This document shows positions 37,257-51,294 of a stretch of DNA of 64,000 nucleotides, piece after piece. The notes under the pieces were generated by a model, which saw only the letters and a list, made by a program, of their open reading frames with translations, ran no database searches and was not told where the DNA came from. The DNA is taken from positions 6,725-70,724 of IMG/VR virus record IMGVR_UViG_3300028831_000155; one strand, written 5' to 3'. Within the stretch, counting starts at the first letter, position 1; each line of letters opens with the position of its first letter. The position numbers were made by a program, and so were the translations under genes. The DNA is from a virus.

Positions 37257-39089
37257 CTATTTCACCATTCCCGCCATAGAAGTGGCCGTGGCATCCGCGG
37301 CCTGATACGGCAAACCGAAGATGTCCTCGGTGGTCCGTAGCAAGCCGAAGTGATTGTATGCGGTGGCGTCGGTGAAAGCGGCCTTCGCCATGCTGCCCGC
37401 GAAGACGGTAAGCACCTGATTGCCCTGCGAGCCGTCGTCCTCATCCCACGTCAGGATCACCAGACACTTATCGACCGTGCAGGCGGGGCTATTGAGAATA
37501 GTGGGCACGTGCTGGCTCAACCATGTATCCCCAGTGCTTATCGAGCAGTCGTGAGTATCGTCGCAGTTATCGGGCTTGACGAAGGACCAGTTCGGAGTGG
37601 TCGCGGCGCTGGCTAGATCGTTGGTCAGGTTCGGGAACATCGGGACCACGTGCGTGTAACACAGGCTACCCGGTGCGGTGTTCTGCCACATATCATCGAA
37701 ATAGATCAACGGATCATGGTGCGCCCGGTAGGTGCCGGGATTGGTCAGCGTGCAGGGTGCAGGCATGTTCTCGAAATAGCCCTTGGCGCTCAGGCCCTTG
37801 GCTAGGAACTCATCGAGCAGGCTGGTCCCCGTGATGTGGCACGTGCTCGACGGATCACAGTCGGTGGTGATGCCGTGGTTCGACCCGGCATACAGATCGA
37901 GGTAATTGGGCAGCGACGGATGCATGATCGCGAAGTAGTTCGAGGCATGCGCCCATGTAGCCACCAGACCGTTGGTGTACGGCGTGGCGCTGGTTCCGAA
38001 CACCTCGCTGTATGAGTGGTTTTCCATCACGATCACGAAGACGTGCTTGGCGCCCGAACTAGGAGTGCTTGTAGGGGTGGGAGTGGGCGTGAAGGTGGAA
38101 CTCGGGCTTGCGGTTGGTGAGGGTGATGCCGTCAGGGTTGGTGTGGGAGTGGGCGTGAACGTGCCGGAGGCCGATGAGGTAGGCGTCGGGGTGGGAGTGC
38201 CGGTGGGATTCTCGACCGTGATCCAATCGACCTGAATCTCGGAGTTTCCAGAAGTTCCAGATGGGCATCCTGTCGCGTGGCACTCCTGCTGCAAGACGAC
38301 GTGCTTGAGGGTATCGGGCAGCGTGGTGCTGCTACCTGAATAGGTCCAGACCACGGTCCCGTCGATGCTCGCGGTCACGACATGGTTGAGCCGCGTGAAC
38401 TGCAGCGTGTGGAACTGGCTCAGGTCAACGCTATAGGCATGGGCGACCTGCTGATTAGTCGAGGAGTAGTGCAGGTACGTCGAGCAGCCAGTGGTTACGT
38501 CAGCCTCGCAGTAGTCTTCCTCACCGCCAGCGGGCCACGATGAGTCATCGTCCGGCCAGCGCATGGGAATGACGTAGTGGGCGCTGACGCCCGAGTCCAC
38601 GATGCGGAAGCGCAGGGTGACTCTCTGGTCAACCGTCGAGAAGCCGTTGAGCCGCATGCCGCCCGTGTACCAAGCCGCCCCGCAGTTCCCAGAGGGCAAG
38701 TATGACTCTAGGAGGTGGAGGTAGCCACCCGTAACGAAGTCCTGCGAGGGTGCGGCACAGTTATGGGCATTGCTCCCGTAGGGGCCGTTGTAGAGACCCC
38801 AGTGGCTAGGTATCCCGCCGCTGTTGAACTCGTCGTCTACGACTAGGGACCAGCCGTTCGATGGTGATGGGCTGGGCGACGGTGATGCCGTGAGCGTAGG
38901 AGAGGCGGTAGGTGACGCCGTAACCGAAGGTGTGGGTGTCGGTGTCAAAGAGGCTGTCGGTGTAGGGGTAACGCAATGCGGGTTGCTCGGATGGAGTTGA
39001 CAAAAGTCTGGCGGCCTTGCCGCTACCGAAGATGTAAAGCTGATGACCAACACCACGACGGCGATGATCGAGAGGGCTGCTCGGGCCAC
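37257..39089 (-). CDS. secreted two-domain enzyme: GH16-like glucanase/lectin domain + phosphoesterase (PLC/acid phosphatase family) domain joined by Pro/Thr linkers
   Basis: Signal peptide; WSLVVDDEFNSGG...W and EEDYCE (ExDxxE) fit the GH16 pattern; KHVFVIVMENHSYSEVFG matches the phosphoesterase family N-motif; TPTPTPT linkers. Confidence 0.55.
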   Translation of the reverse strand: MARAALSIIAVVVLVISFTSSVAARPPDFCQLHPSNPHCVTPTPTASLTPTPTPSVTASPTASPTLTASPSPSPSPSNGWSLVVDDEFNSGGIPSHWGLYNGPYGSNAHNCAAPSQDFVTGGYLHLLESYLPSGNCGAAWYTGGMRLNGFSTVDQRVTLRFRIVDSGVSAHYVIPMRWPDDDSSWPAGGEEDYCEADVTTGCSTYLHYSSTNQQVAHAYSVDLSQFHTLQFTRLNHVVTASIDGTVVWTYSGSSTTLPDTLKHVVLQQECHATGCPSGTSGNSEIQVDWITVENPTGTPTPTPTSSASGTFTPTPTPTLTASPSPTASPSSTFTPTPTPTSTPSSGAKHVFVIVMENHSYSEVFGTSATPYTNGLVATWAHASNYFAIMHPSLPNYLDLYAGSNHGITTDCDPSSTCHITGTSLLDEFLAKGLSAKGYFENMPAPCTLTNPGTYRAHHDPLIYFDDMWQNTAPGSLCYTHVVPMFPNLTNDLASAATTPNWSFVKPDNCDDTHDCSISTGDTWLSQHVPTILNSPACTVDKCLVILTWDEDDGSQGNQVLTVFAGSMAKAAFTDATAYNHFGLLRTTEDIFGLPYQAADATATSMAGMVK

Positions 39090-39102
39090 ACCGATCTCCT
39101 AA

Positions 39103-39381
39103 TCACGGTGGGCCGTCCTCACTTATGGATGGGTGGGTAGGTGGTTCTACGGGCGAAGTAGTGGAATCCGCCACGGTCACGGCTTTCTCAACGCCTGCAA
39201 AGACTGCGGCAAGGATGCCGAGCGTGAAGGTTTGCACGGCGTGCCTGATGTCGATAAAGCCGGTGATTGCCCCAGAGGCATTCACCGCCACAGTATACAG
39301 CGCGACCTTGGTAAAGCGTTTCGCGGCGAGTTTACGGGCTAATGCCAGATCGCCTTGGAGGAGCAGGCGAGGTGACTTCAC
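39103..39381 (-). CDS. membrane protein (lysis-associated?)
   Basis: 92 aa with a hydrophobic core (ITGFIDIRHAVQTFTLGILAAVFAGV). Confidence 0.35.
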   Translation of the reverse strand: MKSPRLLLQGDLALARKLAAKRFTKVALYTVAVNASGAITGFIDIRHAVQTFTLGILAAVFAGVEKAVTVADSTTSPVEPPTHPSISEDGPP

Positions 39382-39695
39382 TTTCTCGCTTTGCGGCCCG
39401 CCATGTTGGCAACAAAATCGCCGCCATCAGATGCCTTGGAGGCTGTGCCGTAGATCGCAAGGAAGGCTAGAAATGCCGCAAACACGTTCTCCACGTTAGG
39501 CGTGGCGCCACTTCCCAGCGCAGCAAGGATCACGAACAAGGCTGAGATGGCAGCCAGCACCAAGTTTCGCACTTGGGCCGTACTGGGAATGCTGGGGACG
39601 ATGGACTGAAGATAGCCCCAGATCAGTCCCACAATGGTCGCTGCGGCGCCTACTCCGGCCGCGGTCCAGATACTCTGCAGGTCGAAACTCGGCAC
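39378..39695 (-). CDS. holin-like membrane protein
   Basis: 105 aa with 3 predicted TM helices and a charged C-tail (RKARK); immediately downstream of the peptidase gene. Confidence 0.45.
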   Translation of the reverse strand: MPSFDLQSIWTAAGVGAAATIVGLIWGYLQSIVPSIPSTAQVRNLVLAAISALFVILAALGSGATPNVENVFAAFLAFLAIYGTASKASDGGDFVANMAGRKARK

Positions 39696-39704
39696 GTCTA
39701 TCTC

Positions 39705-40460
39705 CTAGATACGAGTAAGAGTGAATGGTCCAGATTTGCCAGAGATGAGGTAATAGCCCTCGTAATACCCAGCCTGAATCAAGTAGTAGCCGGGTAGAGT
39801 GCTGGTCGCGGTCCCGGCTCCGCTGGCCCTAGCCCAATATCCACTCTTGCTGCCGGTGATGGCGCGGGTATAGCGAGCGATATGGAAGCCAGTCACGGTG
39901 CCGGGGCCGACCGTAACCTTGAAGGTGCCGGTCGGAGACGGCGCTGGTGCGGGCCGGATCAGCGATGAGCCAGCGTACACGCCGCCAGTCACGTACTGCT
40001 CAGGATTGTGGAACAGGCTGACCCCGTAACTATTGACCGTGCGGCAGGCAGTGTGCTTGTGCGGTCCGGTGGCGACCCCAGTGGCGCCTTCATAGCCAAG
40101 CAGTTGCCCGCGTTTGACGCTCTGGCCACGGCTGACCGCAGCGGAATTCAGGTGGCAGAAGGTGTAGTACATCCCGCCGTAAATCTTCACGTCCACGATG
40201 ATGCCGCCACCAGCGAAAGTGCCGGGGTTCGGCGCCCAGCCCTCGTACTGGACCACGCCTGCCTCCATCGCGTACACCGGGGTGCCTAGTCCGTCAGACC
40301 AGTCGGTGCCTGCGTGGTAGTGCTGCGCATAGGAAGAACCGTAGTACTGGCTGAAGGCGCAGGTCTGAACGCCAACATGCCAGTAGGCGTATTCGAGGTA
40401 ATTGGACTGATTGCCAAAATGCTGGGTCAGAATGCCCAGAGGCAGCAGCAGGCCACTCAC
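39705..40460 (-). CDS. M23-family peptidase (endolysin-type) with a C-terminal domain
   Basis: HYHAGTDW (HxxxD) and GPHKH (HxH) zinc-ligand motifs. Confidence 0.65.
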   Translation of the reverse strand: MSGLLLPLGILTQHFGNQSNYLEYAYWHVGVQTCAFSQYYGSSYAQHYHAGTDWSDGLGTPVYAMEAGVVQYEGWAPNPGTFAGGGIIVDVKIYGGMYYTFCHLNSAAVSRGQSVKRGQLLGYEGATGVATGPHKHTACRTVNSYGVSLFHNPEQYVTGGVYAGSSLIRPAPAPSPTGTFKVTVGPGTVTGFHIARYTRAITGSKSGYWARASGAGTATSTLPGYYLIQAGYYEGYYLISGKSGPFTLTRI

Positions 40461-40723
40461 TGGGTCACCTCGATGCTGGCCTCAGCCAGAACCTCACCTG
40501 TCAGCGACTTCAATTGGTAGCGATAGGCTCCAGCAGCCTGCCAAGACATGAGGGTATCGAATTCAGCATCGGCCTCGATCCCCAACGTCCCTTCAACTTG
40601 ATTGCCGTCAGGAGCGGTAACCGACAATATCGTGTTCTCATCGGTCGGCATGTCGGCGACCTTGACCGAGAAGGGCTCATCCACTTTCGCAGTGGCCGGA
40701 TCAAACGTGATTGCGGGCATCAC
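40457..40723 (-). CDS. hypothetical protein
   Basis: 88 aa; start/stop overlap with neighbours. Confidence 0.4.
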   Translation of the reverse strand: MMPAITFDPATAKVDEPFSVKVADMPTDENTILSVTAPDGNQVEGTLGIEADAEFDTLMSWQAAGAYRYQLKSLTGEVLAEASIEVTQ

Positions 40724-41148
40724 TAGCCTCTCATCAGCGAATCAATGTCGTGGTCATCACACACCAGACCATCCTGCGTGATCCACACTCCATCACGCGT
40801 CCCGTCCGCTCGCTTGGCACCGATGCCGTAGGCCACCCATTCGATTCCTTGGAACGGGCCATTCAGATCGGTGGTGTGGCGCTTGTAGTAGAAGGGTTGG
40901 TCGTCTTCGTAGACCTCTATCCCAAACACCACCGTGTCATTCGACTTGCGGCACAGATACCAGCGCGACCGAACGCCGCGTATCCAGTCCTTCCAAATCT
41001 GCGCCCAGCCCGGATAGTCGAGGTCGATCTTGGTGTTCTGCGTGTTCTCACGGACGATGAACAGGAAATATGGGTTGTCGCCTACCCATTCGTGATGAAC
41101 CTCGCCCACGGCCACATCGGCGGCTTGAACGCTCTCATGTACGGTCAC
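40723..41148 (-). CDS. hypothetical protein
   Basis: 141 aa, W-rich. Confidence 0.4.
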   Translation of the reverse strand: MTVHESVQAADVAVGEVHHEWVGDNPYFLFIVRENTQNTKIDLDYPGWAQIWKDWIRGVRSRWYLCRKSNDTVVFGIEVYEDDQPFYYKRHTTDLNGPFQGIEWVAYGIGAKRADGTRDGVWITQDGLVCDDHDIDSLMRG

Positions 41149-41996
41149 TGCTTGAGCCTGTGGAATGCCTGCAGCGGGGTGACCGTGCTCAGTCCCATGC
41201 GGTTATTCGCCTTGCGGCGCTCCTTGACGACTGCCTTGTCACGCAGGGCCAGTTCCACTAGAAAGTCACGCTCGGTGATCTCCCGCTCTGCGACATGCCC
41301 GATCTTGATGCGGGTGTCCACGAAGATGTGACAGCCCGCGGCCTTGGCATCCTGACAGAATCGCAGGTCCTCTCCGAGTAGACCCTGCCACTTGAAGAAC
41401 TCGGGTGGCCCAGTCCTCATCCGATCTTCGAGAGAGGGGATCGGGTTCCCGGCGATCTTCTCGAACACGCGCTTATGAATCACGGCGAAGGCGAGGCCGG
41501 TGGCGTCCACCTCGGCAATGTCGGCATCCCATGACTCGACGTAGTTGTAGAGCCCCGCATCGGCGGACTCACGCATGTACATGGTCGGCTGGAACGGCTC
41601 GGAGCGCCGGAAGCACAGAGCGCCCAGCATGTCGAGATCGTATTCCTCGCGGGTCGCGATCAGCCTACCCACCGCGTCGGGCTGCCACACCATATCGTCG
41701 TCAATGAAACAAATCCAATCGCCCTCAAGCCTCTGCACTGCCTCATTACGGGCCAGTGTCAGTACTGAGGAGCCGTGGATAATCAGCGGCCCTTTGACGT
41801 AGTACTCCGGCTTGAGCCATGTCCAGTCTGTACCGACCAGTGACATGACTGAGGAAGCTGGCATGCGATCCAGCATCGGGATCGCCACCGTGCCCGCGCA
41901 GACGCCGCCGCCACCCTTGCGAGTCGAGTAGATCATGTGCTCGCCGTCAGGATTTGGCGTTAGCGGTTGCTTCACCGTGATATCATTGTAGGCCAC
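41145..41996 (-). CDS. GT-A glycosyltransferase (family 2-like)
   Basis: ICFIDDDMVWQPD (DxD motif); 283 aa. Confidence 0.65.
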   Translation of the reverse strand: MAYNDITVKQPLTPNPDGEHMIYSTRKGGGGVCAGTVAIPMLDRMPASSVMSLVGTDWTWLKPEYYVKGPLIIHGSSVLTLARNEAVQRLEGDWICFIDDDMVWQPDAVGRLIATREEYDLDMLGALCFRRSEPFQPTMYMRESADAGLYNYVESWDADIAEVDATGLAFAVIHKRVFEKIAGNPIPSLEDRMRTGPPEFFKWQGLLGEDLRFCQDAKAAGCHIFVDTRIKIGHVAEREITERDFLVELALRDKAVVKERRKANNRMGLSTVTPLQAFHRLKQ

Positions 41997-42065
41997 CGCA
42001 TGGCTCTGCTCCGCTCATCAGCGCAAGGCAACGCAGCGCCAATCTCCGTCTCGCTCCGCATCGGA

Positions 42066-42986
42066 CTAAGCTGCGTGGGCACGGCTTAGGCTGTCCATCA
42101 CTTTCTGAAGCCCTTGATAAAGGGTCACTCGCGGTCGGTAGTATTGCAGCATCTCACTCGGGTCCGCATAGCGCGCATGCACACCTTCGGGCTTCGATTC
42201 ATCGGTCACGATCTTCGGCTTGTAGCCCGCGATTTCTGCAGCGGCCTTGGCGATCTCAACGAAGGTGACTGGCACCCCAGTCCCGATGTTCATGGGCACG
42301 TAGCCCAGCACGCCCCGGCTCAGGCGTACCACGGTGGCTGCCACGAGGTCTTTGACATGGATGAAGTCACGGCTCTGGTGGCCCGAGCCCCAGACCTGTA
42401 GCGGGTCCTCATGGTTCAAGGCCCGTTGGCAGATGGCGGTGACCGGATAGGAAGCCGCCTGTCCCTCGCCGTAGCCCGAGAAGGGCCGCAGCACCAGCGT
42501 GTTGAGGCCGAACTTCTCCGACGCCATCCACGCTAGATACTCGGCCATCATCTTCTCGACGCCGTACCACTCGTCAGCCCGAGCCCACTCGGTCTGGGAG
42601 GGATGGAACATGGACTCCGCCAGTTTCATGCCCTTGTCGGACTGGTACTTGATGCCGTACACCGCCGAGGACGAGGGATAGACGGCAACCTTGGTATGCC
42701 CGGCCGCCCAAGAGAAGAAGGCCGCATCCAATCCCGCGTTACCGACCTGCTGGAACGGGTCGTTCTCGATCACTTCGCGGCCACCGACCACCGCCGCGAA
42801 ATGCAGGGCGATGTCGAACACGCGCCCGGAAGTGAATATGTCCATGGCGTCGATGTGCAGCACGCCCTGTGGGCGTTCCTTGGCAGTATCGACTGCCACC
42901 ACTTGGGTATTCGGCTGTGAATGGTAGTGATCGAGGAAGTGGCGACCCAAGAAGCCCGCCGCTCCCGTAATCAGGACTTGGCTCAC
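42066..42986 (-). CDS. NAD-dependent sugar epimerase/dehydratase (SDR family)
   Basis: ITGAAGFLGRHF (GxxGxxG) and YGVEK (YxxxK) motifs. Confidence 0.7.
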   Translation of the reverse strand: MSQVLITGAAGFLGRHFLDHYHSQPNTQVVAVDTAKERPQGVLHIDAMDIFTSGRVFDIALHFAAVVGGREVIENDPFQQVGNAGLDAAFFSWAAGHTKVAVYPSSSAVYGIKYQSDKGMKLAESMFHPSQTEWARADEWYGVEKMMAEYLAWMASEKFGLNTLVLRPFSGYGEGQAASYPVTAICQRALNHEDPLQVWGSGHQSRDFIHVKDLVAATVVRLSRGVLGYVPMNIGTGVPVTFVEIAKAAAEIAGYKPKIVTDESKPEGVHARYADPSEMLQYYRPRVTLYQGLQKVMDSLSRAHAA

Positions 42987-43033
42987 GACTTTCGGGTGGG
43001 GGGCGGGCGGCCCACCACCACGCCCCCCATGTT

Positions 43034-43360
43034 CTAAGAGACGACCACGTCGGCCGAGGCGATCTGTGAATCGTCCGAGGTGTCACGCAGAGTCAATGTC
43101 CACGTGCCAGCAGCCGGGAAAATCACGCTGTTCCATTCGGCCGTGCCGGATGGGTTGGTGCTGAACGGATTGCTCAACAGATCATCCGAGCCTGACTTAC
43201 GAAGGCGGAAGCGGTACACGATCTCCGGCTCGGTCGGATATGTGGACGCACTGAAGGCGCCACTATCGTTGCTCGGCTCATCAACACAGGTGATGTTGCA
43301 CGCGGTCAACTTGGCGGTGATGTGTCCTGAAGTGGGGCTGATAGCGATTCCTGCGGCCAT
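43034..43360 (-). CDS. hypothetical small beta-rich protein
   Basis: 108-aa ORF. Confidence 0.3.
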   Translation of the reverse strand: MAAGIAISPTSGHITAKLTACNITCVDEPSNDSGAFSASTYPTEPEIVYRFRLRKSGSDDLLSNPFSTNPSGTAEWNSVIFPAAGTWTLTLRDTSDDSQIASADVVVS

Positions 43361-43369
43361 AATTACCTC

Positions 43370-44128
43370 CTAGAGCCATTCAGATCGGGTCCAGACTGCG
43401 GCGGGATCGTAACGCTCGATCAGTTCGCCACGAAACAACTTCGCACGTTCATCGTCATAGCGGTAGTAGACACAGCGCGTGCATTGCACGTACTTGAAAG
43501 ATTTTCGAGTAGTTTCCACTAGGTCGTGTACGGCGCAGCCGTTGATCTTGGGCGGTAGCCACGGTGCCCGTTCGCGGGTATCGCCATGCTTGAGTTCGAT
43601 GGAGTGCCACGAGAACGGCGGCTCCAGAATATAGACCGCGTGCTCCTCAGAGCGCTGCATCAGACGCGAGCCGAGTTGCTGGTCCTCTGACTCGTGCAGG
43701 CCATTGAAGGCCATGTCGAAAGCGCCAAAGTCCTTGATGAACTGCGTATCGGCGGCGAACATGCCGCCATAGCAGGACTGGTAACCGTGCCAGTGCGGAG
43801 GTTCGGGATGCTCGCGGCTCTCGCCGTCCTTCATGTTGAGCGCCATGATCTGGTCTGCGTTGTAGTTGGCGAAGTCCACAAGGCGATGGTTGCCCCACAA
43901 GTACTCGTCAAGGTTTTCGATCACGTCACCGATCATGGAATGCGGCGCGATCTGGTCATCGCCTTGGATCACAATCGTGTCGCACTTCGCGGCGAAGATG
44001 CCCACGTTCTGACGCAGTGCCACATCGAGATAGCCAATCGGATACCTCTCCGATGAGAAGCGCAGCAGCCGCACCTTCAGCCCGTAGTTTGAAAAGCGAT
44101 GCGCCTCATTGGTCACCACCGTCACCAC
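43370..44128 (-). CDS. putative glycosyltransferase / sugar-modifying enzyme (uncertain)
   Basis: 252 aa within the glyco island; possible IVIQGDDQ DxD-like motif. Confidence 0.3.
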   Translation of the reverse strand: MVTVVTNEAHRFSNYGLKVRLLRFSSERYPIGYLDVALRQNVGIFAAKCDTIVIQGDDQIAPHSMIGDVIENLDEYLWGNHRLVDFANYNADQIMALNMKDGESREHPEPPHWHGYQSCYGGMFAADTQFIKDFGAFDMAFNGLHESEDQQLGSRLMQRSEEHAVYILEPPFSWHSIELKHGDTRERAPWLPPKINGCAVHDLVETTRKSFKYVQCTRCVYYRYDDERAKLFRGELIERYDPAAVWTRSEWL

Positions 44129-44202
44129 ATCGGGCTGCGGATCGCACTTACTGAGTGAGTAGACCAGCCGCTCGACAGGTTCCTGCCGTAACGACGGGAT
44201 AA

Positions 44203-45114
44203 CTACTTCAACGCCGATTCGTAGACCTTCACCAGTTTGGCCGCGACTTTGGCTTCATCGTGGTACTTCTCGACATGGAAGCGACCCAGAGCACCGAAAT
44301 GCTTGCGTAGAACCGGATCGGCGGCCATCTCACTGATTCTCTGCCGCAATCGGCTCTGATCGGTGAGGAGAAATGGCAGATACCCGTACACGTAATTCAT
44401 CAACATGAGGATCGCCGGGTCAAACGCGCCAGAAATGACCGGAATCCCCATCGCCATCGCTTCGATGGCCGAGAGGGCATAGCCGATGTGGAGTTGATCG
44501 TAAAAGATATCTGCTTGGGACTTGCGCTGGAGACACTCGTCGTGGCTGGTCCACTCGATGAGGTCCACGTCGAGGTCGAGTTCTGCCACTGCACCCAGAA
44601 AGTCATCAGTGTTCTTGACTCCTCTGTGTGTCGGTGAATGAGCGATCTTCAGTCTGCGGCGCTTGGCTAACGACCGCATGGCCGCCAGTCTAGGGATATC
44701 GACCGGATTGGGGAGCCATTCTGCGTCAGGGTCGATCAAGGTCAGGTCGATAGTCGAGACGATGTGCTGAACCCCGTATTCCTTGGTGGTTCGCAGAATC
44801 TCGGCGGTGTTATCGACTCGGAACTCGGTGCCGTGTGAGTGAAACACCATCGGCTTGTCACGCCAGTTCGGAAACTCACCGGCCGCAGACCAGCGCTCCA
44901 TGATATGGATTAGGTCGGCTTCATCCCAGAGCCGCAATAATTCCTCTGTAACCGGCTCACCCTTGGGCCAGAAGATGTCCTGCTCGTAGCCGATGTAGTT
45001 CTGATGCCGCGTCACCGAACGGGCAGTCCAGTCGGTGTATCGCTCCAAGGCGTGCTTCAGAGCGATCCCGACGCCACCCACATCCTCGTGGTCGCTGAGG
45101 ATGAGTGATCTCAT
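44203..45114 (-). CDS. GT-B-type glycosyltransferase
   Basis: LSAIEAMAMGIPVISG resembles the GT4 C-terminal motif. Confidence 0.5.
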   Translation of the reverse strand: MRSLILSDHEDVGGVGIALKHALERYTDWTARSVTRHQNYIGYEQDIFWPKGEPVTEELLRLWDEADLIHIMERWSAAGEFPNWRDKPMVFHSHGTEFRVDNTAEILRTTKEYGVQHIVSTIDLTLIDPDAEWLPNPVDIPRLAAMRSLAKRRRLKIAHSPTHRGVKNTDDFLGAVAELDLDVDLIEWTSHDECLQRKSQADIFYDQLHIGYALSAIEAMAMGIPVISGAFDPAILMLMNYVYGYLPFLLTDQSRLRQRISEMAADPVLRKHFGALGRFHVEKYHDEAKVAAKLVKVYESALK

Positions 45115-45761
45115 TCCACGCGGCGACCCACTCCGATCACCATATCTGGGTAGGGTCCCATGTTGAAGTGGAACGCTTCTTCAAGGCGGTGCCCGTTGGC
45201 CGAGAACCAGTTGTAGAAATCAGAGAGTTGATAGGCCCACCGATGACCCGGCTCGTCATCCGAGGCATCTCCGACCAGCGGATGGCCGATGACGCTCCAT
45301 CGGGCTCGCGGCATCCAATCTGCGGCAACCTTGAGTGGATCGGTGAGGTGCTCAAGCACCTCAGTCAGGATCAGAACGTCGGAATCCCTCGGCTCGACAT
45401 CCTCGACCTTGGACAGGATGAAGTCGAGGTCCGGCCATCGTTCGGCGCAGATGGTCTGAGCCACCGGCACCACGTCCACACCATGGACCTCATGGCCGTT
45501 GCTGAACGGGCCAGAGATATCCGCCGAGCCACAGCCCAATTCCCAAATGGTGCCCGGAAACTCCACCGCGTCGAGGCAGCGCCACACCAGTCCGCGGGCC
45601 ACCGCGATCCGCCACGGCTGAGTCTCTACGAATAGCGGAGCGTCATTGCGGTCAAGATGAACCTGTACCACGTCGAGTTCGGGAGGTTTGGCAAGCCGCA
45701 TCAGGCGGCCAGTATGCGCTTGAGGGTCTCCACATCCTTGGCAAATCCGTTTGCCATCCAT
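45111..45761 (-). CDS. class I SAM-dependent methyltransferase
   Basis: IWELGCGSADIS (motif I) and acidic motif II VLILTEVLEH. Confidence 0.55.
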   Translation of the reverse strand: MDGKRICQGCGDPQAHTGRLMRLAKPPELDVVQVHLDRNDAPLFVETQPWRIAVARGLVWRCLDAVEFPGTIWELGCGSADISGPFSNGHEVHGVDVVPVAQTICAERWPDLDFILSKVEDVEPRDSDVLILTEVLEHLTDPLKVAADWMPRARWSVIGHPLVGDASDDEPGHRWAYQLSDFYNWFSANGHRLEEAFHFNMGPYPDMVIGVGRRVE

Positions 45762-46390
45762 CTCGCGAAGGCGGCCTTGTCGTGGTCGATCATCTCGCTA
45801 CTGTTCACACGCTGGTAGCCCATATCCATCGCGGCTTTCCCGGCGAACGGATGCAGGTGCTCGATCACCACCTCTGGGAAGTAGAACAGCCGTCCTGTAG
45901 CCGATCCCAGCGAGCGCCAAGCGTTGTCCACCCACAGGTGCTTGAGCACTGGCGGCGCCATCCAACCCAGCGCGCTGATGATCGAGGAACTCATCACGAC
46001 TTGAGTCGGCAGGTTCGCACCCTGATATAGATCATTGCCGTAGGCAAAGCCGCCACCTCTCCTGTCGAGTTTGGTGACGAATATCTTGTCCCAGCCCTTG
46101 GTGCGAGGGCGATGATCGTCTCCGAAGAAACCGATGTAGTTGTAGACCCCAATCGCTGAGTGCAGCGTGGCGGCCGCATTCAGCGCACGGACCATGGAGC
46201 CAATCGACTCGTTGATCTCGATATTGCCCGAGGGCAGCAGTTCAAGATAGGCGTCCAGTTCGGGATCATCCTCATCGACCACGAACAGGCAGGTCGTGTG
46301 CTTGAACTTCTTGGTTGCCTCGAACTCGGTCAGCAGTTCCAGCGCGTTGGTGGGTCGCCCTCTGCTCGGGACTAGGACGAGAAGAGACAT
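45701..46390 (-). CDS. GT-A-like glycosyltransferase
   Basis: LVLVPSRGRP N-terminus and FFGDDH DxD-like motif. Confidence 0.45.
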   Translation of the reverse strand: MSLLVLVPSRGRPTNALELLTEFEATKKFKHTTCLFVVDEDDPELDAYLELLPSGNIEINESIGSMVRALNAAATLHSAIGVYNYIGFFGDDHRPRTKGWDKIFVTKLDRRGGGFAYGNDLYQGANLPTQVVMSSSIISALGWMAPPVLKHLWVDNAWRSLGSATGRLFYFPEVVIEHLHPFAGKAAMDMGYQRVNSSEMIDHDKAAFARWMANGFAKDVETLKRILAA

Positions 46391-46392
46391 CT

Positions 46393-46539
46393 AGAGCGCC
46401 GGAAAATGTACCTGCGCCAAGATCAGGAGGGCCACTCCCAACGCCCACCACTTGGGAGCCAGCGTGCCCAGAGCCACCGAGAACGACTCGAACAGGAAAC
46501 AGATCGCCGCGGCTATCAGGAGAATCAGAACCAGCATCA
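46393..46539 (-). CDS. small membrane protein (48 aa; below the ORF-track cutoff)
   Basis: MLVLILLIAAAICFLFESFSVALGTLAPKWWALGVALLILAQVHFPAL, two TM helices. Confidence 0.3.
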
Positions 46540-47466
46540 CGTCAGTCCTTTCGCTTTAGCCCATTCCTGAGCGGCCAGTGCCGCCGCCCTATTGCCCCGA
46601 GCATGACGCAGGACGGCCCACTTGGCGATCTGCGCCCAGAAGGTGATGTCGCAGGCCTGCGCCAGACAGCCAGACGGTTGCGGCGCAGGGGTCGGTGTGG
46701 GGAGAGGGATCGGGAGATCGTGGCCGGTGAGGCTCTTGAAGGCCGCGGCCAGTTTGGTCGAGTCAATGCCGGTCAGGAATTGGGTGGTGCCGAGGTTTTC
46801 GGGCCAGACCACCACCCATGCCTCCTCGACCAGATGTGACCAGAAGCCATCGGTGAAGGAAGTCTCCTTTGCCCACGTGATGAACTTCTCGTCTGAGCCC
46901 GGCGTCGAGGGGTTATAGCCGCCAGTCTCCACCGAGTGCCCGCCTTCAATCCCGGCGTTGGGATGGTAGTCCCACGGCCTGCCCGCATCGAAGTCATCCA
47001 TGTTGGCGTTCTGGACGTTGATGCCGACCCAGATATGGCCGAAGATCGCCATCGCCGCGGCGGCTTCCTGCGGATTGGTGTAGTCCACCTTGGCGAACGC
47101 AATGGCCTTGACGCCATCCGGGCCACCCTTGCTGACGAGGTACTCCAAGCAAGTCTGGATGTCCATGCCATTGTCGTCGTTCGGAAACTGCGGGTTCTGG
47201 GTCTTATAGACCTCGATCACGTCGCTCTGGCTCGGATAGTTCTCCTTGCCTCCCAGCAACGCGGTCATCAGGCGGCGCTGGTTGGCCCACGTGACGGCCA
47301 CGCAGTCGCCCCAGCGGTCGTTTCCAAGCATCGCCCAGCCAGACAAACGGCCTAGATAGTCGGCCGAGGCTGGATGCTCGGGCACCACTCCTGATAAAAA
47401 CTGAGAGAGCCGCAGTGCAGGAGCATTCTTGGGTGGGCGCCGTCCGAGTTTCACGTCAGGCATCAA
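46537..47466 (-). CDS. putative papain-like cysteine peptidase
   Basis: GDCVAVTWAN (Cys region) and IEGGHSVETGGYN (GGHxVxxxGY His region) resemble the C1-peptidase catalytic dyad; 309 aa. Confidence 0.35.
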   Translation of the reverse strand: MMPDVKLGRRPPKNAPALRLSQFLSGVVPEHPASADYLGRLSGWAMLGNDRWGDCVAVTWANQRRLMTALLGGKENYPSQSDVIEVYKTQNPQFPNDDNGMDIQTCLEYLVSKGGPDGVKAIAFAKVDYTNPQEAAAAMAIFGHIWVGINVQNANMDDFDAGRPWDYHPNAGIEGGHSVETGGYNPSTPGSDEKFITWAKETSFTDGFWSHLVEEAWVVVWPENLGTTQFLTGIDSTKLAAAFKSLTGHDLPIPLPTPTPAPQPSGCLAQACDITFWAQIAKWAVLRHARGNRAAALAAQEWAKAKGLT

Positions 47467-47832
47467 AGGCTCCTTACATGGAAAGACTCGCGGCTGATGT
47501 GGGCGATTCAGTCACGAGTCCTGCCATTCACGGCAACCGATACTGCAGATGGTGCTGCGGGCCGCCGCTATTCAAGGGGAGGGCTTGCGGGTCCTCGCAA
47601 GGGATAATTGCTGCCCAACTGCCCGCTCGCTCGCCGCAAGCCCTCTAGGGAGACTCCGCCTTGCGGCGATTGCCCGAGCCATCCCTGTTTCTAATGCGGC
47701 GCCACGAGTCAGATTAGGAGTTTTGCGCCTTCGCTTTTAGCAAAGAACTCCGTGGGCCGAACCCGCTCGCGCCGCGATATCACCTTAGCGACTGGACTCA
47801 GTAGAGTCAAGCCTTTTCCTACGATAGCCTTC
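47467..47832. other. 366-nt structured noncoding spacer inside the late operon
   Basis: Nested inverted repeats GGGCTTGCGG...CCGCAAGCCC, CTTGCGggtcctCGCAAG and GGAGTT(23 nt)AACTCC; no ORF. Confidence 0.3.
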
Positions 47833-48321
47833 CTAGGTCTCATCGTACGAGACACTCGCTATTTCCTGTGTCCAGTTGCCGGGTCCGCAGGTTGCGTCAA
47901 CTTGCAACTGGAAGACGAAGTACTTGGTGGTGGCGTTGGTCGCCGAGTACGACGCCGAGTCGAAGGTCAGTTTGTTGCCCGCGGTGAAGTTGACGAAGGT
48001 CGTGTTGGCGACCGTGCTGGTCGCAGTGGTTGGAGTGGCCCCAGTCACATAGGCGCCAGTCACCATCAGCGTGGTGCTGGTTTGTACGGCGCCGTCACCC
48101 CAAATCTTGAAGTTGGTCACCGCGTTGGCGGGAGCGGTGTCCACCTTCATCTTGAGCCACTTCTCGTAGGAGTTGGTGCCGACCGTGATCGGGTTGGCTT
48201 GGCGGTTGCCAAGCGTGTTGGTGGCGTTGTCGGCCGACTCCAGATCAATACCTGTGACTACGGCGGATTCGGTTCCGGCTGAAGCGCCGGTATAGACCCT
48301 GAACGAAAGACTAGCGGCCAT
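47833..48321 (-). CDS. hypothetical structural protein
   Basis: 162 aa, Thr/Ala-rich, directly downstream of the portal gene. Confidence 0.4.
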   Translation of the reverse strand: MAASLSFRVYTGASAGTESAVVTGIDLESADNATNTLGNRQANPITVGTNSYEKWLKMKVDTAPANAVTNFKIWGDGAVQTSTTLMVTGAYVTGATPTTATSTVANTTFVNFTAGNKLTFDSASYSATNATTKYFVFQLQVDATCGPGNWTQEIASVSYDET

Positions 48322-48338
48322 GAGATATCACATTTCTC

Positions 48339-49736
48339 CTACGCTGGACCCTTGGATGCGGCGTTGGCTGGAGCCTGTGGGCGCGGCTGGCTCACCCCAT
48401 TTGCGGGAGGGTTGGATGGTGCCGCGGCGGCGGCCTTCTTGGATAGACCCGCCATATCGGCAGGTGTTGGAATGTCATCGGCCTTGCCCGTCAAGCGGAC
48501 AATGCCGAGCGGGGTGTTGGCGATCAATTGGTTGAACGGGTTTTCTGGATCGTTCACATCACCGATTGGCTCGCGGCCCGCGTCAATCAGAGCGGCATTG
48601 ATGGTCAGGTACGGCATACCCGCCAGAGCGATCTTGTTGATGGTGGCCTGCGCGGTGGACTCGCGGATGGTCAGGCGCGGGAAGCGGAAGGCGAGATTGT
48701 TATCGGGGCCGCCGAAACTGTGGTGCCAGACGTACTGCTGGGTTAGTTCGTCTTGGATCAGATCGGCAAGGGGCCGCAGACCACGGTCCTCGGACAGATC
48801 GACCTGCGTATCGGAAGTAGAACGGTTGATGTCGAACAGCAGGCCGAGGTCTTGGATCGACAGGCCGAACACGATGGCGAACTGGCGCACCAGCCATTGC
48901 TGGTACTCCAAGAACTGCATGTCCTTGTTGGTCGGACGGAACGCGGTGTAGCCGGGATTCTTGCCGCCCGCGGTGATGGCAAGCGCCCCAGACGACTGCA
49001 GGTCTTGGTAGAACTCTGACTTGAACCGCTCACGGTCATCGGGCGTCACGCCCTCGCCCAGATGTAGCAATCCATCAGGAATCGGGAAGTCGATCAGGCG
49101 CCGGTTGTAATCACTGGCCGCCATCTCCGAGACGACCACATCACGCAGCACTTCCAGCGGCGAGACACCCAGCACGGTGTAGGTGCTGGGGTTCTGCATC
49201 ATGTAACTCATCTGGGAGTTCTTCCATGACGTGCCGTGATATTGGCCGTCTGGATACCAGAAGTAGCGCGGCTCGTTGCGATCCGAGCCATCCCACGTGG
49301 TCGAGACACGCACCTTGGCCGCATCTACTGGATGAATCTGGACCAGATCGCGGAAGCCGTCCTCTACGCCCTCCGATACGCCCGCATCCAGCGTCATCAG
49401 GTCTTCGATGATGGGGGTGATGAAGGCTCGGAAGGAGCGCTGCGTGTCATTGGGATGCGCGAACAGATCGGTGATCTTGGCGGCCAGACGCTTGGAATAG
49501 GGCCGGTTCACGTCGAATGGCCCGATCTCGAAGTCTGCTGAGGCGATCTGGTTCTTGCGAATGTCGATGGCGCCGCGAATCCACGGATTACTTCTGGTCC
49601 ACGAGCGATAGCCATTGACATTGGTCTTGAAGGCACGGTTCTGGGATACGGCGATAGACGCCAGCGTGGACGGGCTGCGATCAACCGCCTTGGGGGCGAT
49701 GGCGCGCTGCAGCCATTGGGTAACAATTCCTGCCAA
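48339..49736 (-). CDS. portal protein
   Basis: 465 aa immediately after the large terminase gene; HK97-type portal-like composition and size. Confidence 0.65.
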   Translation of the reverse strand: MAGIVTQWLQRAIAPKAVDRSPSTLASIAVSQNRAFKTNVNGYRSWTRSNPWIRGAIDIRKNQIASADFEIGPFDVNRPYSKRLAAKITDLFAHPNDTQRSFRAFITPIIEDLMTLDAGVSEGVEDGFRDLVQIHPVDAAKVRVSTTWDGSDRNEPRYFWYPDGQYHGTSWKNSQMSYMMQNPSTYTVLGVSPLEVLRDVVVSEMAASDYNRRLIDFPIPDGLLHLGEGVTPDDRERFKSEFYQDLQSSGALAITAGGKNPGYTAFRPTNKDMQFLEYQQWLVRQFAIVFGLSIQDLGLLFDINRSTSDTQVDLSEDRGLRPLADLIQDELTQQYVWHHSFGGPDNNLAFRFPRLTIRESTAQATINKIALAGMPYLTINAALIDAGREPIGDVNDPENPFNQLIANTPLGIVRLTGKADDIPTPADMAGLSKKAAAAAPSNPPANGVSQPRPQAPANAASKGPA

Positions 49737-49740
49737 CGCC

Positions 49741-51294
49741 TTACCTCATTCCAAAGTGATTGGACAGCAGTTGCCGCATTTCACGCTTGATAAGGTCCGA
49801 TTCTTGGCTCTTGGCGGCTGCCGCGATCTTCTCAGGTTCTACGGGCTTGGGGCCGTGTGCGATTTTCACATCGCTGGGACGTATCACGCTAAAGGAAAAA
49901 TCACCGCCACCGAGGTCCATGGCGAAGCCCAACGAGTCCACGAAGTCGTCATGGCCTCGGTTGAAACTGAGCAGTTCGCGCTCGAAGTCACTGCCACGCA
50001 GTGAAACGTGGTGATAGACCTTGTGAGCCTCGTATCGCGCGGCCACGCCTCGGCCGCGGGTGGTCTTGTCGGTATCGGTCTTCTTGGGGCTGACCGGGAT
50101 GCGCGGATAGTCCCGCATCAGTTCTTGGACCAGAAGCGTCTGCGCCTGCACCGCCTCGACCTTGACCAGCGAGATTTGGGGGAAGGCCTGATAGCCCGCG
50201 TTCACGAAAGCGGCGTGGCCGCCCTCCATCTTGTCGCGGTAAGCACTCATCACGAAGAAGTCGCCGGTCCGATTCTCAGCCACCACTACCCGCGCGGTGT
50301 AGTCGGCGCGCTCGCGGGTGCTCATGGCGAGGTCTACGCCCATGCGGTAGGTGTACTCGCCCTCCGGCAGGACATCGAAGTACTGGAACCACTCGGCGCG
50401 GAAGATATTGCCCTCCAGCAGGCCGGTGATGTCGTTGAGGTAGGCGCACGCGAAAAGCGGGCCGCCCATGTTCTCCTTCATTTCCAGCAGCTTGGATACG
50501 GGCCACACCTCAGGCCAGTACGAGAACAGGTTGCCTTCTCGCTCGATCAGGGCTGAGGTGATGCGGTGCCGCCAGCCGCGGCCCTTGGGCTTGGGCTGGA
50601 TCAGCATTTGGTACAGGTCGTCCTCGGCCCACGCGGTGCCGATGACCAGAATCACGCCCTGATCCGAAAGACACGGGTACAGCGTCTTCCACATCCACTG
50701 GTTGACGCGCTCACGCTGCTCGGGAGTGGCCGAGTTCTCGTCGTCAATCACGTCATCGAGGATCACCACATCGAAGCGCTTGGATACGACCTGCCCGCCC
50801 ACGCCTCCGGCGAACATAGTCACGTCCTTGGAGCCTTCCCAGCGGCTTCCGGCCCGCAGCCACGTGGCATCGGTCCACTTGGTATCGGACACCAGATGGC
50901 CGAATATCTCCCTGAAGCGCTCGTTGCGCTCTAGGGTCAGCCGAATACCACGGCTCATGTCGAAGGCGCGCTCGGCGGTCTTGCTGAATAGGCCGATGCG
51001 GATATTGGGCCGTTTGGCAACGAGGTAACTGCCGAGGATGGTGGTCACCCACGTGGTCTTGGCACCACCGCGCGGCTCCATATCAACCGAATCGGTGTGA
51101 GTATCTATACCCTCAAGGCAGAACTCCACCATCTCGCGATGGTGTTTGGCGGGTTCGTAGCCGAATACGTACTCGCCGTACTTGAAAACGTCATTCGGCG
51201 CCTGAAACCTCAGAATCAGGTCCAGCGCTTCTCTGGCTTCCTCCGGGCTCAACGAGTCGGAGTCGGGAGGCTCGTTCGATCCGTTCGATGGCAT
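49741..51294 (-). CDS. terminase large subunit
   Basis: GGAKTTW Walker A-like and VVILDDVIDDE Walker B motifs; C-terminal nuclease-like region; 517 aa. Confidence 0.75.
   Translation of the reverse strand: MPSNGSNEPPDSDSLSPEEAREALDLILRFQAPNDVFKYGEYVFGYEPAKHHREMVEFCLEGIDTHTDSVDMEPRGGAKTTWVTTILGSYLVAKRPNIRIGLFSKTAERAFDMSRGIRLTLERNERFREIFGHLVSDTKWTDATWLRAGSRWEGSKDVTMFAGGVGGQVVSKRFDVVILDDVIDDENSATPEQRERVNQWMWKTLYPCLSDQGVILVIGTAWAEDDLYQMLIQPKPKGRGWRHRITSALIEREGNLFSYWPEVWPVSKLLEMKENMGGPLFACAYLNDITGLLEGNIFRAEWFQYFDVLPEGEYTYRMGVDLAMSTRERADYTARVVVAENRTGDFFVMSAYRDKMEGGHAAFVNAGYQAFPQISLVKVEAVQAQTLLVQELMRDYPRIPVSPKKTDTDKTTRGRGVAARYEAHKVYHHVSLRGSDFERELLSFNRGHDDFVDSLGFAMDLGGGDFSFSVIRPSDVKIAHGPKPVEPEKIAAAAKSQESDLIKREMRQLLSNHFGMR

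Follow-up and report, generated by a model that had tools for sequence, protein, structure and literature searches.

A variable sugar-enzyme cassette among the structural genes of an uncultured soil phage lineage

We analyzed a stretch of 64,000 nucleotides from IMG/VR virus record IMGVR_UViG_3300028831_000155 (positions 6,725 to 70,724; hereafter the window). The window leaves out about 6.7 kb of a genome of roughly 70.7 kb, and the absences given below are therefore not absolute. The phage belongs to a lineage without a cultured relative, its TerL being at most about 30% identical to that of any cultured phage. The sole hint of a host comes from a single relative, which was binned in a Lysinibacter MAG, and an actinobacterial host for this uncultured soil phage is unproven. 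A sugar-enzyme island occupies positions 41145-46390 on the minus strand, the same bounds as in a previous sequence-only reading of this DNA, and lies in the gap between the portal and the prohead protease. The features of the gap used here are as follows.

48339-49736, minus strand: portal, the upstream bound of the gap
47833-48321, minus strand: g162, a predicted beta-sandwich protein with 26% Ser/Thr, directly after the portal
45701-46390, minus strand: GTa_229, a small GT-A-like glycosyltransferase
45111-45701, minus strand: class I SAM-dependent methyltransferase
44203-45114, minus strand: GTB_303, a putative GT-B (GT4-like) glycosyltransferase
43370-44218, minus strand: unkGTA, a glycosyltransferase of predicted GT-A fold
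43034-43360, minus strand: s108, a conserved 108-aa non-enzyme protein inside the island, 26% Ser/Thr
42066-42986, minus strand: extended SDR, an NDP-sugar epimerase or reductase
41145-41996, minus strand: GT2_283, a GT-A (GT2) glycosyltransferase
40723-41148, minus strand: g141, a conserved 141-aa protein closing the island, its start overlapping the GT2 stop by 4 nt
27574-28896, minus strand: GT4_440, a GT-B family 4 glycosyltransferase
24399-27458, minus strand: prohead protease/capsid, the downstream bound of the gap

The eight-gene block from 46390 to 40723 and the separate GT4 gene share their strand with the terminase, portal, protease and capsid genes. The gaps along the island string are 0, -1, -4, -16, +9, +47, +69 and -4 nt, most joints being overlaps of 0 to 16 nt, and no promoter or terminator signal rose above background. 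The co-orientation and translational coupling with the structural genes that had been proposed from the sequence thus hold. Strong Shine-Dalgarno sequences precede s108 (GGAGG) and g162, and the enzyme genes rely on coupling. Genes for an M23 peptidase, for holin-like proteins and for a secreted phosphoesterase also lie in the gap, as do fibre-like genes, and a lysis-like block follows directly downstream of the island.

All six island enzymes and the GT4 at 27574-28896 passed profile or fold tests, which upheld the earlier count of about five glycosyltransferase candidates: five glycosyltransferases (three GT-A and one GT-B in the island itself), one SDR and one methyltransferase. HMM searches on each ORF gave scores above cutoff for GT2_283, the SDR, the methyltransferase and GT4_440; GTa_229 was supported by PHROG, GTB_303 by a profile that we built and unkGTA by its fold. 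GT2_283 matches PF00535 (4.7e-8; 33.6 bits versus a cutoff of 23.3) and phrog_1574 (1.9e-16), contains a DDD motif and has homologs of 46-60% identity in the related genomes L019, L081, L084, L085, L088, L089 and L090. In those relatives that could be checked, it lies directly 5' of g141 wherever both are present. GTa_229 matches phrog_14945, annotated "glycosyltransferase" (2.1e-47), and more weakly the GT-A structure AvpGT in the PDB (0.017); its invariant residues include R10, D39, D42 and a GDD motif (G90-D91-D92), and homologs of 41-63% identity occur in L001, L019, L084, L085, L088 and L089. Most relatives carry this gene, which opens the island's series of enzymes. Tested against the GT-A fold class (a single Rossmann-like alpha/beta/alpha domain with a DxD metal and nucleotide-sugar motif), unkGTA, GT2_283 and GTa_229 were all assigned to it, the last being the weakest of the three.

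unkGTA, previously described as an uncertain sugar enzyme, had no Pfam match. Its AF2 model (pLDDT 94.7, pTM 0.93) gave Foldseek matches in the PDB that were all GT-A: K4CP (5.7e-10), AvpGT, ppGalNAc-T, TarP, TarS, SpsA and polysaccharide synthases. A profile match to heparosan synthase (0.003) was also obtained, and a GDDQ motif is invariant in the family. On this modelled fold, unkGTA is predicted to be the fourth glycosyltransferase of the island. The conserved N-terminal part begins at an ATC (44218), which is non-canonical, and a GTG at 44128 is the sole canonical start. For GTB_303, the Pfam match was sub-threshold (1.2e-3), and a 27-sequence profile matched GT4/GT-B structures in the PDB (MshA, 2.5e-8; PimB', 9.3e-6; PglA, 1.9e-4). 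These matches span residues 211-305, where E218, M222 and P225 are invariant in the region of the C-terminal E…G-x-P motif. Together with an NCBIfam EpsE GT4 match (4.1e-7) and PF00534 in some homologs, the profile points to a GT-B enzyme of family 4 as judged by the C-terminal nucleotide-sugar-binding domain.

The fifth glycosyltransferase, GT4_440, scored above the gathering thresholds of PF13692 (2.4e-18) and PF00534 (2e-16), which places it in GT-B family 4. A 115-nt gap separates it from the prohead protease/scaffold gene that follows. Homologs of 41-50% identity in L002, L004, L007, L081 and L088 always lie just before the protease, and L093 carries a GT4 (by Pfam) in the same place; a GT4 thus precedes the protease in all six relatives whose sequence reaches there.

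The SDR matches PF01370 (Epimerase, 9.6e-30) and phrog_540 (nucleotide-sugar epimerase, 2.6e-41) and contains the motifs TGAAGFLG (GxxGxxG), SSSAVYG and YGVEK (YxxxK), that is, the glycine motif and Ser-Tyr-Lys triad of extended SDRs. Its best NCBIfam match, GDP-L-fucose synthase, covers the full length (6.3e-22) far below the cutoff of that family, and no NCBIfam equivalog cutoff was reached. The enzyme had been proposed as an epimerase/dehydratase; the epimerase family assignment stood, and an NDP-hexose 4,6-dehydratase (RmlB, Gmd) was rejected, with SSSA in place of TDE and 57 bits against a cutoff of 365 for TIGR01181. The methyltransferase matches PF08241 (Methyltransf_11; 6.6e-6, 27.1 bits versus a cutoff of 21.2). 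Its maximal ORF reaches 45761 and relatives align from residue 22; the start is probably Met21, an ATG at 45701 with a 1-nt overlap with the GTa stop.

Three small genes frame the cassette in the relatives. g162 marks its upstream border and is 59-88% identical in relatives whose portal is 44-72% identical; its AF2 model (pLDDT 72) is a beta-sandwich, for which the fold search returned no significant match. We regard g162 as a candidate for a virion protein or for the acceptor. The s108 gene, which the sequence-only reading had overlooked, is present in 13 relatives of the aligned set; it has no Pfam or PHROG match, no search marks it as an enzyme, and it might be an acceptor or a component of the virion. 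Directly upstream of s108, 9 of these 13 have a GT-A gene, as does the window by fold; in that position L002 has a gene with a weak GT2-like match, L003 an unidentified gene and L004 a 126-aa ORF. g141 has homologs in L002, L003, L019, L081, L084, L085, L088, L089 and L090, and family searches gave no match.

Between these conserved genes the enzymes turn over. Each of the 14 related metagenomic phage genomes covering the site has sugar genes there, and the gene sets differ, comprising glycosyltransferases, SDR enzymes, methyltransferases, a DegT aminotransferase and hexapeptide acyltransferases. L001, for example, has the DegT aminotransferase and three further GT2 genes, L090 has a CmcI/rhamnosyl-O-methyltransferase family gene and two SDR genes, and L002 and L004 have the hexapeptide acyltransferases. 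Since different enzyme sets lie between the same conserved flanks, strains of the lineage should display different glycans.

The sequence-only reading had held that actinobacteriophages have no known island of this extent, a claim that did not survive comparison with published genomes. In the cluster J mycobacteriophages Thibault, Optimus, BAKA, Omega, LittleE and Courthouse, an insertion of 8-10 genes in the virion structure operon, between the capsid and head-tail connector genes, encodes five predicted glycosyltransferases and SAM methyltransferases (PMC3706429). The present locus matches it in kind, as a multi-gene block in a structural operon with about five glycosyltransferases, a methyltransferase and a content that varies among members, and one cluster J glycosyltransferase resembles chondroitin synthase, the top fold match here. 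However, the position differs (portal/protease here), cluster J carries a Ser/Thr kinase and a metallopeptidase-like gene, and an SDR is not reported there. A tblastn search with GTa_229, GT2_283 and GT4_440 against 50,697 phage records gave no mycobacteriophage match. Corndog (cluster O) has, between its portal and protease genes, three glycosyltransferases together with an O-methyltransferase (PMC4351075); the gap is the same as here, and the pairing of a methyltransferase with several glycosyltransferases is similar. It differs in having four genes against seven enzymes here and no nucleotide-sugar tailoring enzyme, and when all window proteins were compared with Corndog gp32-41 by BLASTP, no enzyme-enzyme match fell below E = 0.4, gp35-38 included. 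According to PMC12363180 and PMC11600133, phage-encoded glycosyltransferases of Che8, Corndog and Myrna glycosylate capsid and tail tube, and the enzymes are expressed in infection and absent from virions, O-glycosylation having been proven (Freeman et al. 2023, cited in both). As in those phages, glycosyltransferases and a methyltransferase lie within the structural genes here.

Annotated cassettes occur in other phage lineages as well. Synechococcus phage S-CBS4 has portal, a hypothetical gene, GT4, galactosyltransferase and methyltransferase, with protease and capsid further downstream; Tetrasphaera phage TJE1 has a nucleotidyltransferase, kinase, nucleotide-sugar epimerase, methyltransferase and glycosyltransferase by its terminase. 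Among cultured phages, GT4_440 has its nearest relatives in the GT4 proteins of these two (25-27% identity), but their cassettes are smaller, with one or two glycosyltransferases, are known from annotation only and belong to unrelated phage lineages. Giant viruses encode their own glycosyltransferases, SDR/dehydratase, aminotransferase, acetyltransferase and methyltransferases (PBCV-1 Vp54 glycan enzymes such as A064R; Mimivirus fibril clusters), and with these enzymes they make, in the cytoplasm, virion-protein glycans that differ between strains and are partly methylated. The BFVD fold matches of unkGTA are giant-virus and phage GT2 proteins, the top ones from giant viruses; however, these are eukaryotic viruses with much larger gene sets, and the common ground is the GT-A/GT-B superfamilies only. 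The novelty here lies in the tailoring of sugar nucleotides, in a cassette whose content varies and in the lineage itself, multi-gene cassettes per se being already known in mycobacteriophages.

With modest confidence, we favor the view that the island is a late-expressed, cytoplasmic protein-glycosylation cassette. Epimerisation or 4-reduction by the SDR would turn a nucleotide-sugar of the host into a less common one. The soluble glycosyltransferases (three island GT-A, one island GT-B and the conserved GT4 beside the protease gene) would attach sugars one after another, straight to a structural protein of the phage, either ahead of assembly or while it proceeds. The SAM methyltransferase would O-methylate one sugar of the glycan, and the end product would be a glycan on the virion surface. 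The site itself is a swap-in, swap-out locus. The multi-sugar, possibly methylated, phage-made glycan that had been predicted is reasonable. Stepwise cytoplasmic glycosylation of a virion protein is the best reading. The enzymes lack a membrane segment (no hydrophobic 19-mer above 1.63 in any of them), and neither a flippase or polymerase nor a base hydroxymethylase occurs in the window; nor did Pfam scans across its remainder turn up a phosphoglycosyl transferase or a sugar nucleotidyltransferase. The portal-to-protease position, shared strand, tight junctions, variable content, conserved flanks, the strong Shine-Dalgarno sequences of s108 and g162 and the precedent in Che8, Corndog and Myrna also speak for virion glycosylation. 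[quoted passage not shown] Against the preferred reading, the capsid and tail-tube C-termini (…QAKVQAQFEA and …NWVIDL) have, by inspection, no Ser/Thr-rich tail. Published acceptor sites in mycobacteriophages are C-terminal, and those regions have no obvious counterpart here. The lack of BLASTP similarity to Corndog gp35-38 and the replication-module setting of the nearest cultured-phage homologs of GTa_229 (below) also count against it, as does one homolog of the unkGTA family, in L080, which sits amid early and recombination genes.

Some observations point to targets other than the virion. The enzymes might alter a wall polymer or glycolipid on the cytoplasmic face of the host envelope late in infection, which could hide the receptor and so spare progeny from being lost to debris, or could block superinfection. 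Soluble GT-A enzymes such as TarP work on wall polymers, two wall-teichoic-acid glycosyltransferases, TarP and TarS, and polysaccharide synthases are among the fold matches of unkGTA, and the best weak NCBIfam matches of GT2_283, GTB_303 and GT4_440 are exopolysaccharide, teichuronic-acid and PIM enzymes. The adjoining lysis-like block fits such a role, and surface-polysaccharide loci also typically vary in cassette content. TarP and the Gtr proteins, phage-encoded systems that change a surface glycan (TarP with a GT-A enzyme), come from temperate phages, where they are expressed in lysogeny, and Gtr needs a flippase (GtrA), a bactoprenol glucosyltransferase (GtrB) and a membrane glycosyltransferase. 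However, the window holds no GtrA/GtrB-like protein, none of these Pfam families and no integrase or recombinase; the locus is therefore not that of a classical seroconverting prophage. The missing membrane segments, flippase and polymerase, and the embedding between portal and capsid with small conserved proteins bearing strong ribosome-binding sites, also make envelope remodelling unlikely in our view. A non-structural host or phage protein, or a small molecule, modified in the cytoplasm for takeover or counter-defence, would make the structural-operon position an incidental, permissive insertion site. The clearly non-head genes in the gap (M23 peptidase, holin-like, secreted phosphoesterase, fibre-like) indicate that it tolerates cargo, and GT4_440 matches PF20706, "GT4 in conflict systems" (5.5e-9). 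Yet the sugar genes occupy the exact site in all 14 relatives and the flanks persist through complete enzyme turnover, which speaks for a function tied to those neighbours, and PADLOC returned no matches; we regard this alternative as quite improbable.

Sugars might instead be placed on modified bases of the phage DNA, evading restriction; DNA-hypermodifying phage glycosyltransferases are well documented (cited in PMC12619734). The nearest cultured-phage homologs of GTa_229 (39-44% identity) lie in DNA-replication modules of Streptomyces phages, adjoining a nucleotidyltransferase, dNMP kinase, phosphatase and polymerase subunits. Arthrobacter phage homologs likewise adjoin a nucleotidyltransferase, and phrog_2675, annotated "DNA methyltransferase", also matches GTa_229. 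However, Pfam searches of 86 ORFs in the window, which is about 6.7 kb short of the genome, found no thymidylate-synthase-like hydroxymethylase, dNMP kinase or other base-modification enzyme, and the genes lie in the late structural string, away from replication genes. The DNA base glycosylation class (T4-like and others) was rejected on these two points. We know of no DNA glycan pathway with as many as five glycosyltransferases plus an SDR and a methyltransferase, and hypermodification seems to us very improbable.

A bolder form of virion glycosylation is a tentative possibility that we rather doubt: an O-antigen-like, cassette-swapping "glycotype" locus in which g162 and/or s108 would be virion decoration proteins bearing a strain-specific, tailored, methylated glycan. 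If so, phage particles in soil would show a serotype-like diversity of surface sugars under diversifying selection, and virion glycan diversity would extend well beyond the mycobacteriophage and immune-evasion setting of its discovery. The lineage is an abundant, uncultured one of soil, with more than 800 distinct g162 homologs (803) in public metagenomes.

All genes of interest in the window (GC content approximately 60%) lie on the minus strand and are listed here in the direction of transcription.

Gene order around the sugar-gene island
49741-51294, minus: large terminase (TerL; phrog_38, 2.9e-83)
48339-49736, minus: portal (PF04860)
47833-48321, minus: g162, a 162-aa protein
46391-47466, minus: g309, a 309-aa protein (phrog_19005), then g49, a 49-aa hydrophobic protein; both precede the island
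45701-46390, minus: glycosyltransferase GTa_229, followed by the SAM methyltransferase
44203-45114, minus: glycosyltransferase GTB_303
from 43370, minus: unkGTA
43034-43360, minus: s108, a small non-enzyme protein
42066-42986, minus: SDR enzyme
41145-41996, minus: glycosyltransferase GT2_283
40723-41148, minus: g141, downstream of the island with g88
37257-40460, minus: M23 peptidase, two small hydrophobic proteins, then a 610-aa secreted phosphoesterase-family protein
next, minus: several genes without assigned function
29329-34079, minus: two long repeat proteins (1068 and 524 aa), then g103
27574-28896, minus: GT4 glycosyltransferase
next, minus: putative 578-aa prohead protease/scaffold fusion (from position, length and the protease annotation in relatives)
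24399-25721, minus: major capsid protein (phrog_752)
next, minus: connector and tail genes, including the 129-aa major tail protein (tail tube, 21750-22139)
tail region, minus: 1589-aa ORF, putative tape measure (from size and position; no family match)

This order places the island within an accessory-gene stretch of approximately 21 kb that separates portal from protease. The gaps at its junctions are 0, -1, -4, -16, +9, +47, +69 and -4 nt, and promoter and terminator scans of the island gave no signal over the shuffled background. The co-orientation and translational coupling with the structural genes, described in the sequence-only reading, are thus real. Third-position GC of the island genes (0.71-0.78) falls within the structural-gene range and agrees with that of the remaining genome; on this measure, there is no sign of recent horizontal transfer. 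None of 50,697 phage records matched the island in a blastn search, PADLOC matched no island protein, and Rfam matched nothing in the whole window.

Every enzyme assignment that had been made from the sequence alone survived profile or fold tests. GT2_283 scored above the Pfam GT2 gathering score, the GT4 assignment was unambiguous in Pfam, and the methyltransferase passed Methyltransf_11 as a class I SAM enzyme. The SDR protein matched PF01370 (9.6e-30) and a PHROG nucleotide-sugar epimerase family (2.6e-41) and bears the GxxGxxG, Ser and YxxxK signatures; its best family match, GDP-fucose synthase-like, was far under the cutoff, and the protein is a nucleotide-sugar epimerase or reductase, not a 4,6-dehydratase. 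GTa_229 had no Pfam match; it matched a PHROG glycosyltransferase family (2.1e-47), its GDD motif is invariant across nine homologs, and its profile weakly matched the GT-A enzyme AvpGT. GTB_303 reached only a sub-threshold Pfam score, and its 27-sequence profile matched the GT4 structures MshA (2.5e-8), PimB' (9e-6) and PglA. The uncertain sugar enzyme of the earlier reading, unkGTA, had no family match in Pfam, PHROGs or NCBIfam. Its AlphaFold model (pLDDT 94.7, built with 38 metagenomic homologs) had leading Foldseek matches that were all GT-A glycosyltransferases, including chondroitin polymerase (5.7e-10), AvpGT, polypeptide GalNAc-transferases, TarP and SpsA in the PDB, and giant-virus and phage GT2 proteins in BFVD. 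On its modeled fold, unkGTA is thus a fourth island glycosyltransferase, which with the GT4 enzyme gives the phage a total of five, in agreement with the number first proposed. No island enzyme has a hydrophobic 19-mer above 1.63; the set, counting the GT4 enzyme, is a soluble one of five glycosyltransferases, one SDR and one methyltransferase.

Two start codons required correction. For the methyltransferase, the likeliest start is Met21 (45701), which gives a one-base overlap with the GTa stop. In unkGTA, the conserved N-terminus (VEVVIPSLRQEPVERLVYSLSKCDPQPD) is encoded upstream of the sole canonical start, a GTG at 44128; the stretch 44128-44218 (minus) encodes the first 30 conserved residues, and the codon aligned with the Met of the homologs is ATC (44218-44216), which lies 16 nt within the gene before it. 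The short form is also called in two other close homologs, P0003 and P0004. This arrangement could reflect translation that re-initiates at a non-canonical start, decay of the gene or an error in the sequence.

The portal, SDR, unkGTA and g162 proteins were used as queries and yielded 14 distinct related phage contigs covering the site (from IMG/VR, JGI, ENA, Logan and two MAGs), whose TerL and portal proteins are 50-72% and 44-72% identical to those of the window. An additional contig, L086, is the same phage (protein identity 99.7-100%); the soils in which this phage occurs include those sampled for L086 and L087. Sugar-metabolism genes lie between portal/g162 and s108/g141 in 14/14 relatives, and the gene sets differ.

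Gene sets at the cassette site in the related contigs
L019, L084, L085, L089, L091, L093 (commonest): GTa, second gene of ~260 aa, s108, methyltransferase, SDR, GT2, g141; the second gene in L089 is a relative of a GT2 of L001 (tblastn), and in L091 and L093 only its size and position support this assignment
L088: the methyltransferase leads, followed by the genes of the commonest set
L001: GTa, GTB, methyltransferase, GT2, GT2, DegT aminotransferase (8.6e-87), gene without assignment, GT2, s108, SDR
L090: CmcI/rhamnosyl-O-methyltransferase family gene, two SDR genes, gene without assignment, unkGTA, s108, GT2, g141
L092: SDR, methyltransferase, SDR, gene without assignment, GT2, 105-aa gene, GT2
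L081: SDR, gene without assignment, unkGTA, s108, GT2, g141
L003: SDR, 327-aa gene without assignment, then s108
L002: hexapeptide acyltransferase, weak GT2-like gene, then s108
L004: hexapeptide acyltransferase, gene without assignment, GT2, then 126-aa ORF, s108

L002, L003 and L004 were considered as island-less relatives and rejected, as Pfam identified different sugar genes there. Several positions are constant. The GT2_283 orthologue directly precedes g141 in every relative having both, and the gene directly upstream of s108 is a GT-A gene in the window and nine relatives, the weak GT2-like gene in L002, the 327-aa gene in L003 and the 126-aa ORF in L004. In L002, L004, L007, L081, L088 and L093, the GT4 gene is likewise retained immediately before the prohead protease gene. 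Cassette exchange at a fixed position, a pattern like that of surface-polysaccharide loci, suggests a product that is exposed and under diversifying selection, and would imply selection for glycan diversity in an antibody-free environment.

Two of the conserved genes that frame the site provide, in our view, the best candidates for the acceptor. Identity of g162 among the relatives is 59-88%, above the conservation of the portal, and the protein has 803 homologs (all at least 75% identical among the 120 matches listed). Many of these are on contigs of 66-77 kb from soil and other samples, and the lineage is therefore common in metagenomes. PHROGs gave no match for g162, s108 or g141. The AF2 model of g162 was only moderate (pLDDT 72), and Foldseek against the PDB returned no match under E = 0.04, those listed being generic pilin- or Ig-like folds. 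A profile match to residues 510-635 of lambda gpJ (E = 0.014) was too weak for use, and the idea of N-glycosylation was dropped because the five NxS/T sequons of g162 were not significant against the 3.2 expected from shuffles. A variable loop occupies approximately residues 86-115 of g162, and s108 has an insertion (the DSGAFSASTYPTEPE region). We favor g162 and s108 as candidate acceptors because Ser/Thr make up 26% of each, both carry strong Shine-Dalgarno sequences, which the enzymes lack, and both are fixed neighbors of the cassette. [quoted passage not shown]

The 1068-aa protein is a further candidate acceptor, judging from its approximately 20 tandem Thr/Ser-rich units of 20-21 aa (…TSEAPTTSDVATRTGTFSRT…). 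These are followed by approximately 35 units of 13 aa (…QSASLTLDAVLxxT…), which the adjacent 524-aa protein shares; in relatives, the 13-aa repeats are combined with different inserts, the HAVIWDLLNPTDPP repeats of L081 being an example. Both proteins may be fibers and possible glycan acceptors. The homolog of the following gene, g103, bears a BppU_N domain in relatives.

Pfam scans of the window found no Wzx/Wzy-type, GtrA/GtrB-type or phosphoglycosyl-transferase families, and neither a sugar nucleotidyltransferase nor a hydroxymethylase-type base-modifying enzyme. From the soluble enzymes, the late coupled genes and the lack of a flippase, polymerase or base modifier in the window, we infer that a soluble acceptor would be glycosylated stepwise in the cytoplasm at the expense of host nucleotide sugars, one of which the SDR would tailor, and that the methyltransferase would O-methylate the glycan. 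The replacement of the methyltransferase by a rhamnosyl-O-methyltransferase/CmcI family member in one relative fits sugar O-methylation. As a direct precedent, three reports (PMC12363180; PMC11600133; PMC12619734) describe capsid and tail-tube subunits of Che8, Corndog and Myrna as glycosylated by phage-encoded glycosyltransferases.

The strongest rival, which we regard as unlikely, is that the island enzymes modify a host wall polymer in the manner of the prophage-encoded TarP, a soluble GT-A enzyme that is among the fold matches of unkGTA. However, neither membrane components nor an integrase or recombinase was found in the window, and close linkage ties the cassette to conserved small proteins that are apparently highly expressed. 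A cytoplasmic target outside the virion is quite improbable in our estimation. Glycosylation of DNA would agree with the location of the nearest cultured-phage homologs of GTa_229 in Streptomyces phage replication modules, but the window has no enzyme able to create an acceptor base and the island genes are late, which leaves this explanation very improbable.

To our knowledge, phage-encoded virion glycosylation has been demonstrated only in a few mycobacteriophages, in which it is discussed mainly as an antibody shield. The sequence-only reading is partly supported: the enzyme set and the late position stand, whereas the claim that only single virion glycosyltransferases were known in actinobacteriophages is wrong, and novelty was overstated, as cassettes of Cluster J and Cluster O precede this one. 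In the structural operon of Cluster J mycobacteriophages, an insertion of 8-10 genes includes five predicted glycosyltransferases and SAM methyltransferases; its content differs from member to member, and one of the glycosyltransferases is similar to chondroitin synthase (PMC3706429). In Cluster O, an O-methyltransferase and three glycosyltransferases lie between portal and protease (PMC4351075), and the cassette of its member Corndog occupies the same gap as our island. Annotated cassettes with glycosyltransferases and a methyltransferase also occur in Synechococcus phage S-CBS4 and Tetrasphaera phage TJE1, with an epimerase in the latter. The island had no significant BLASTP match to Corndog, and no homology between the window locus and the Cluster J or Cluster O cassette genes was detected by BLASTP/tblastn.

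What sets the locus apart is that cassettes turn over systematically between conserved genes that do not encode enzymes, in a lineage that has no cultured representative. It also adds nucleotide-sugar tailoring, by an SDR here and by an aminotransferase and acyltransferases in relatives; giant-virus clusters for capsid and fibril glycosylation likewise have such enzymes. More notable than how large this one island is, in our view, is the pattern that emerges from comparison of the relatives. If our interpretation is true, virion glycosylation would extend to an environmentally abundant soil phage lineage without a cultured relative, the glycans would be made from nucleotide sugars that the phage itself tailors, and fixed-site replacement would mean that glycan diversity is selected where antibodies are absent. 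A compact soluble glycosyltransferase set beside candidate protein acceptors would also be attractive for glyco-engineering.

The TerL is at most ~30% identical to that of any cultured phage, and tblastn with the capsid protein found no match in phage records. A scan of genome contigs found two relatives binned in MAGs, one assigned to Lysinibacter (Actinomycetota) and the other to Patescibacteria. We rejected host assignment from these bins, which conflict, the binning of a phage contig being weak evidence.

Several other features were observed. Homologs of GTa_229 (~40-44% identical) adjoin a nucleotidyltransferase in large Streptomyces and Arthrobacter phages. In Streptomyces phage Blueeyedbeauty (57494-59200), a second glycosyltransferase is also present and the whole group is part of the DNA-replication module; therefore, the target there may be different. 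In L088-L093, a PTPS/QueD-like gene (PF01242) adjoins a ParB_N gene immediately ahead of the terminase genes, ~4-5 kb upstream of g162, and may point to DNA modification of the 7-deazaguanine type; the window ORFs scanned with Pfam contained no PTPS/QueD-like gene. A tRNA-Thr(AGT) of 88 nt predicted by ARAGORN (15890-15977, plus) lies on the opposite strand inside a 978-aa tail-region ORF and is probably a false positive.

A 366-nt non-coding gap (47467-47832, minus) follows g162; its predicted RNA fold is far more stable than those of shuffled controls (z = -3.8; 0/100 shuffles as stable), and Rfam gave no match. Most relatives have no gap of similar length, their sugar genes beginning within ~200 nt of g162, and tblastn did not detect g309 or the strongly hydrophobic g49 in the related loci searched; all three features were seen only in the window phage. 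The g309 protein has a GDC…H pattern resembling a papain-like cysteine peptidase. The M23 peptidase and its neighbors form a lysis-like block amid the head genes. In this block, the N-terminus of the 610-aa protein resembles a signal peptide, and the protein also has linkers rich in Pro, Thr and Ser and a phosphoesterase domain (PF04185; phospholipase C/acid phosphatase family).
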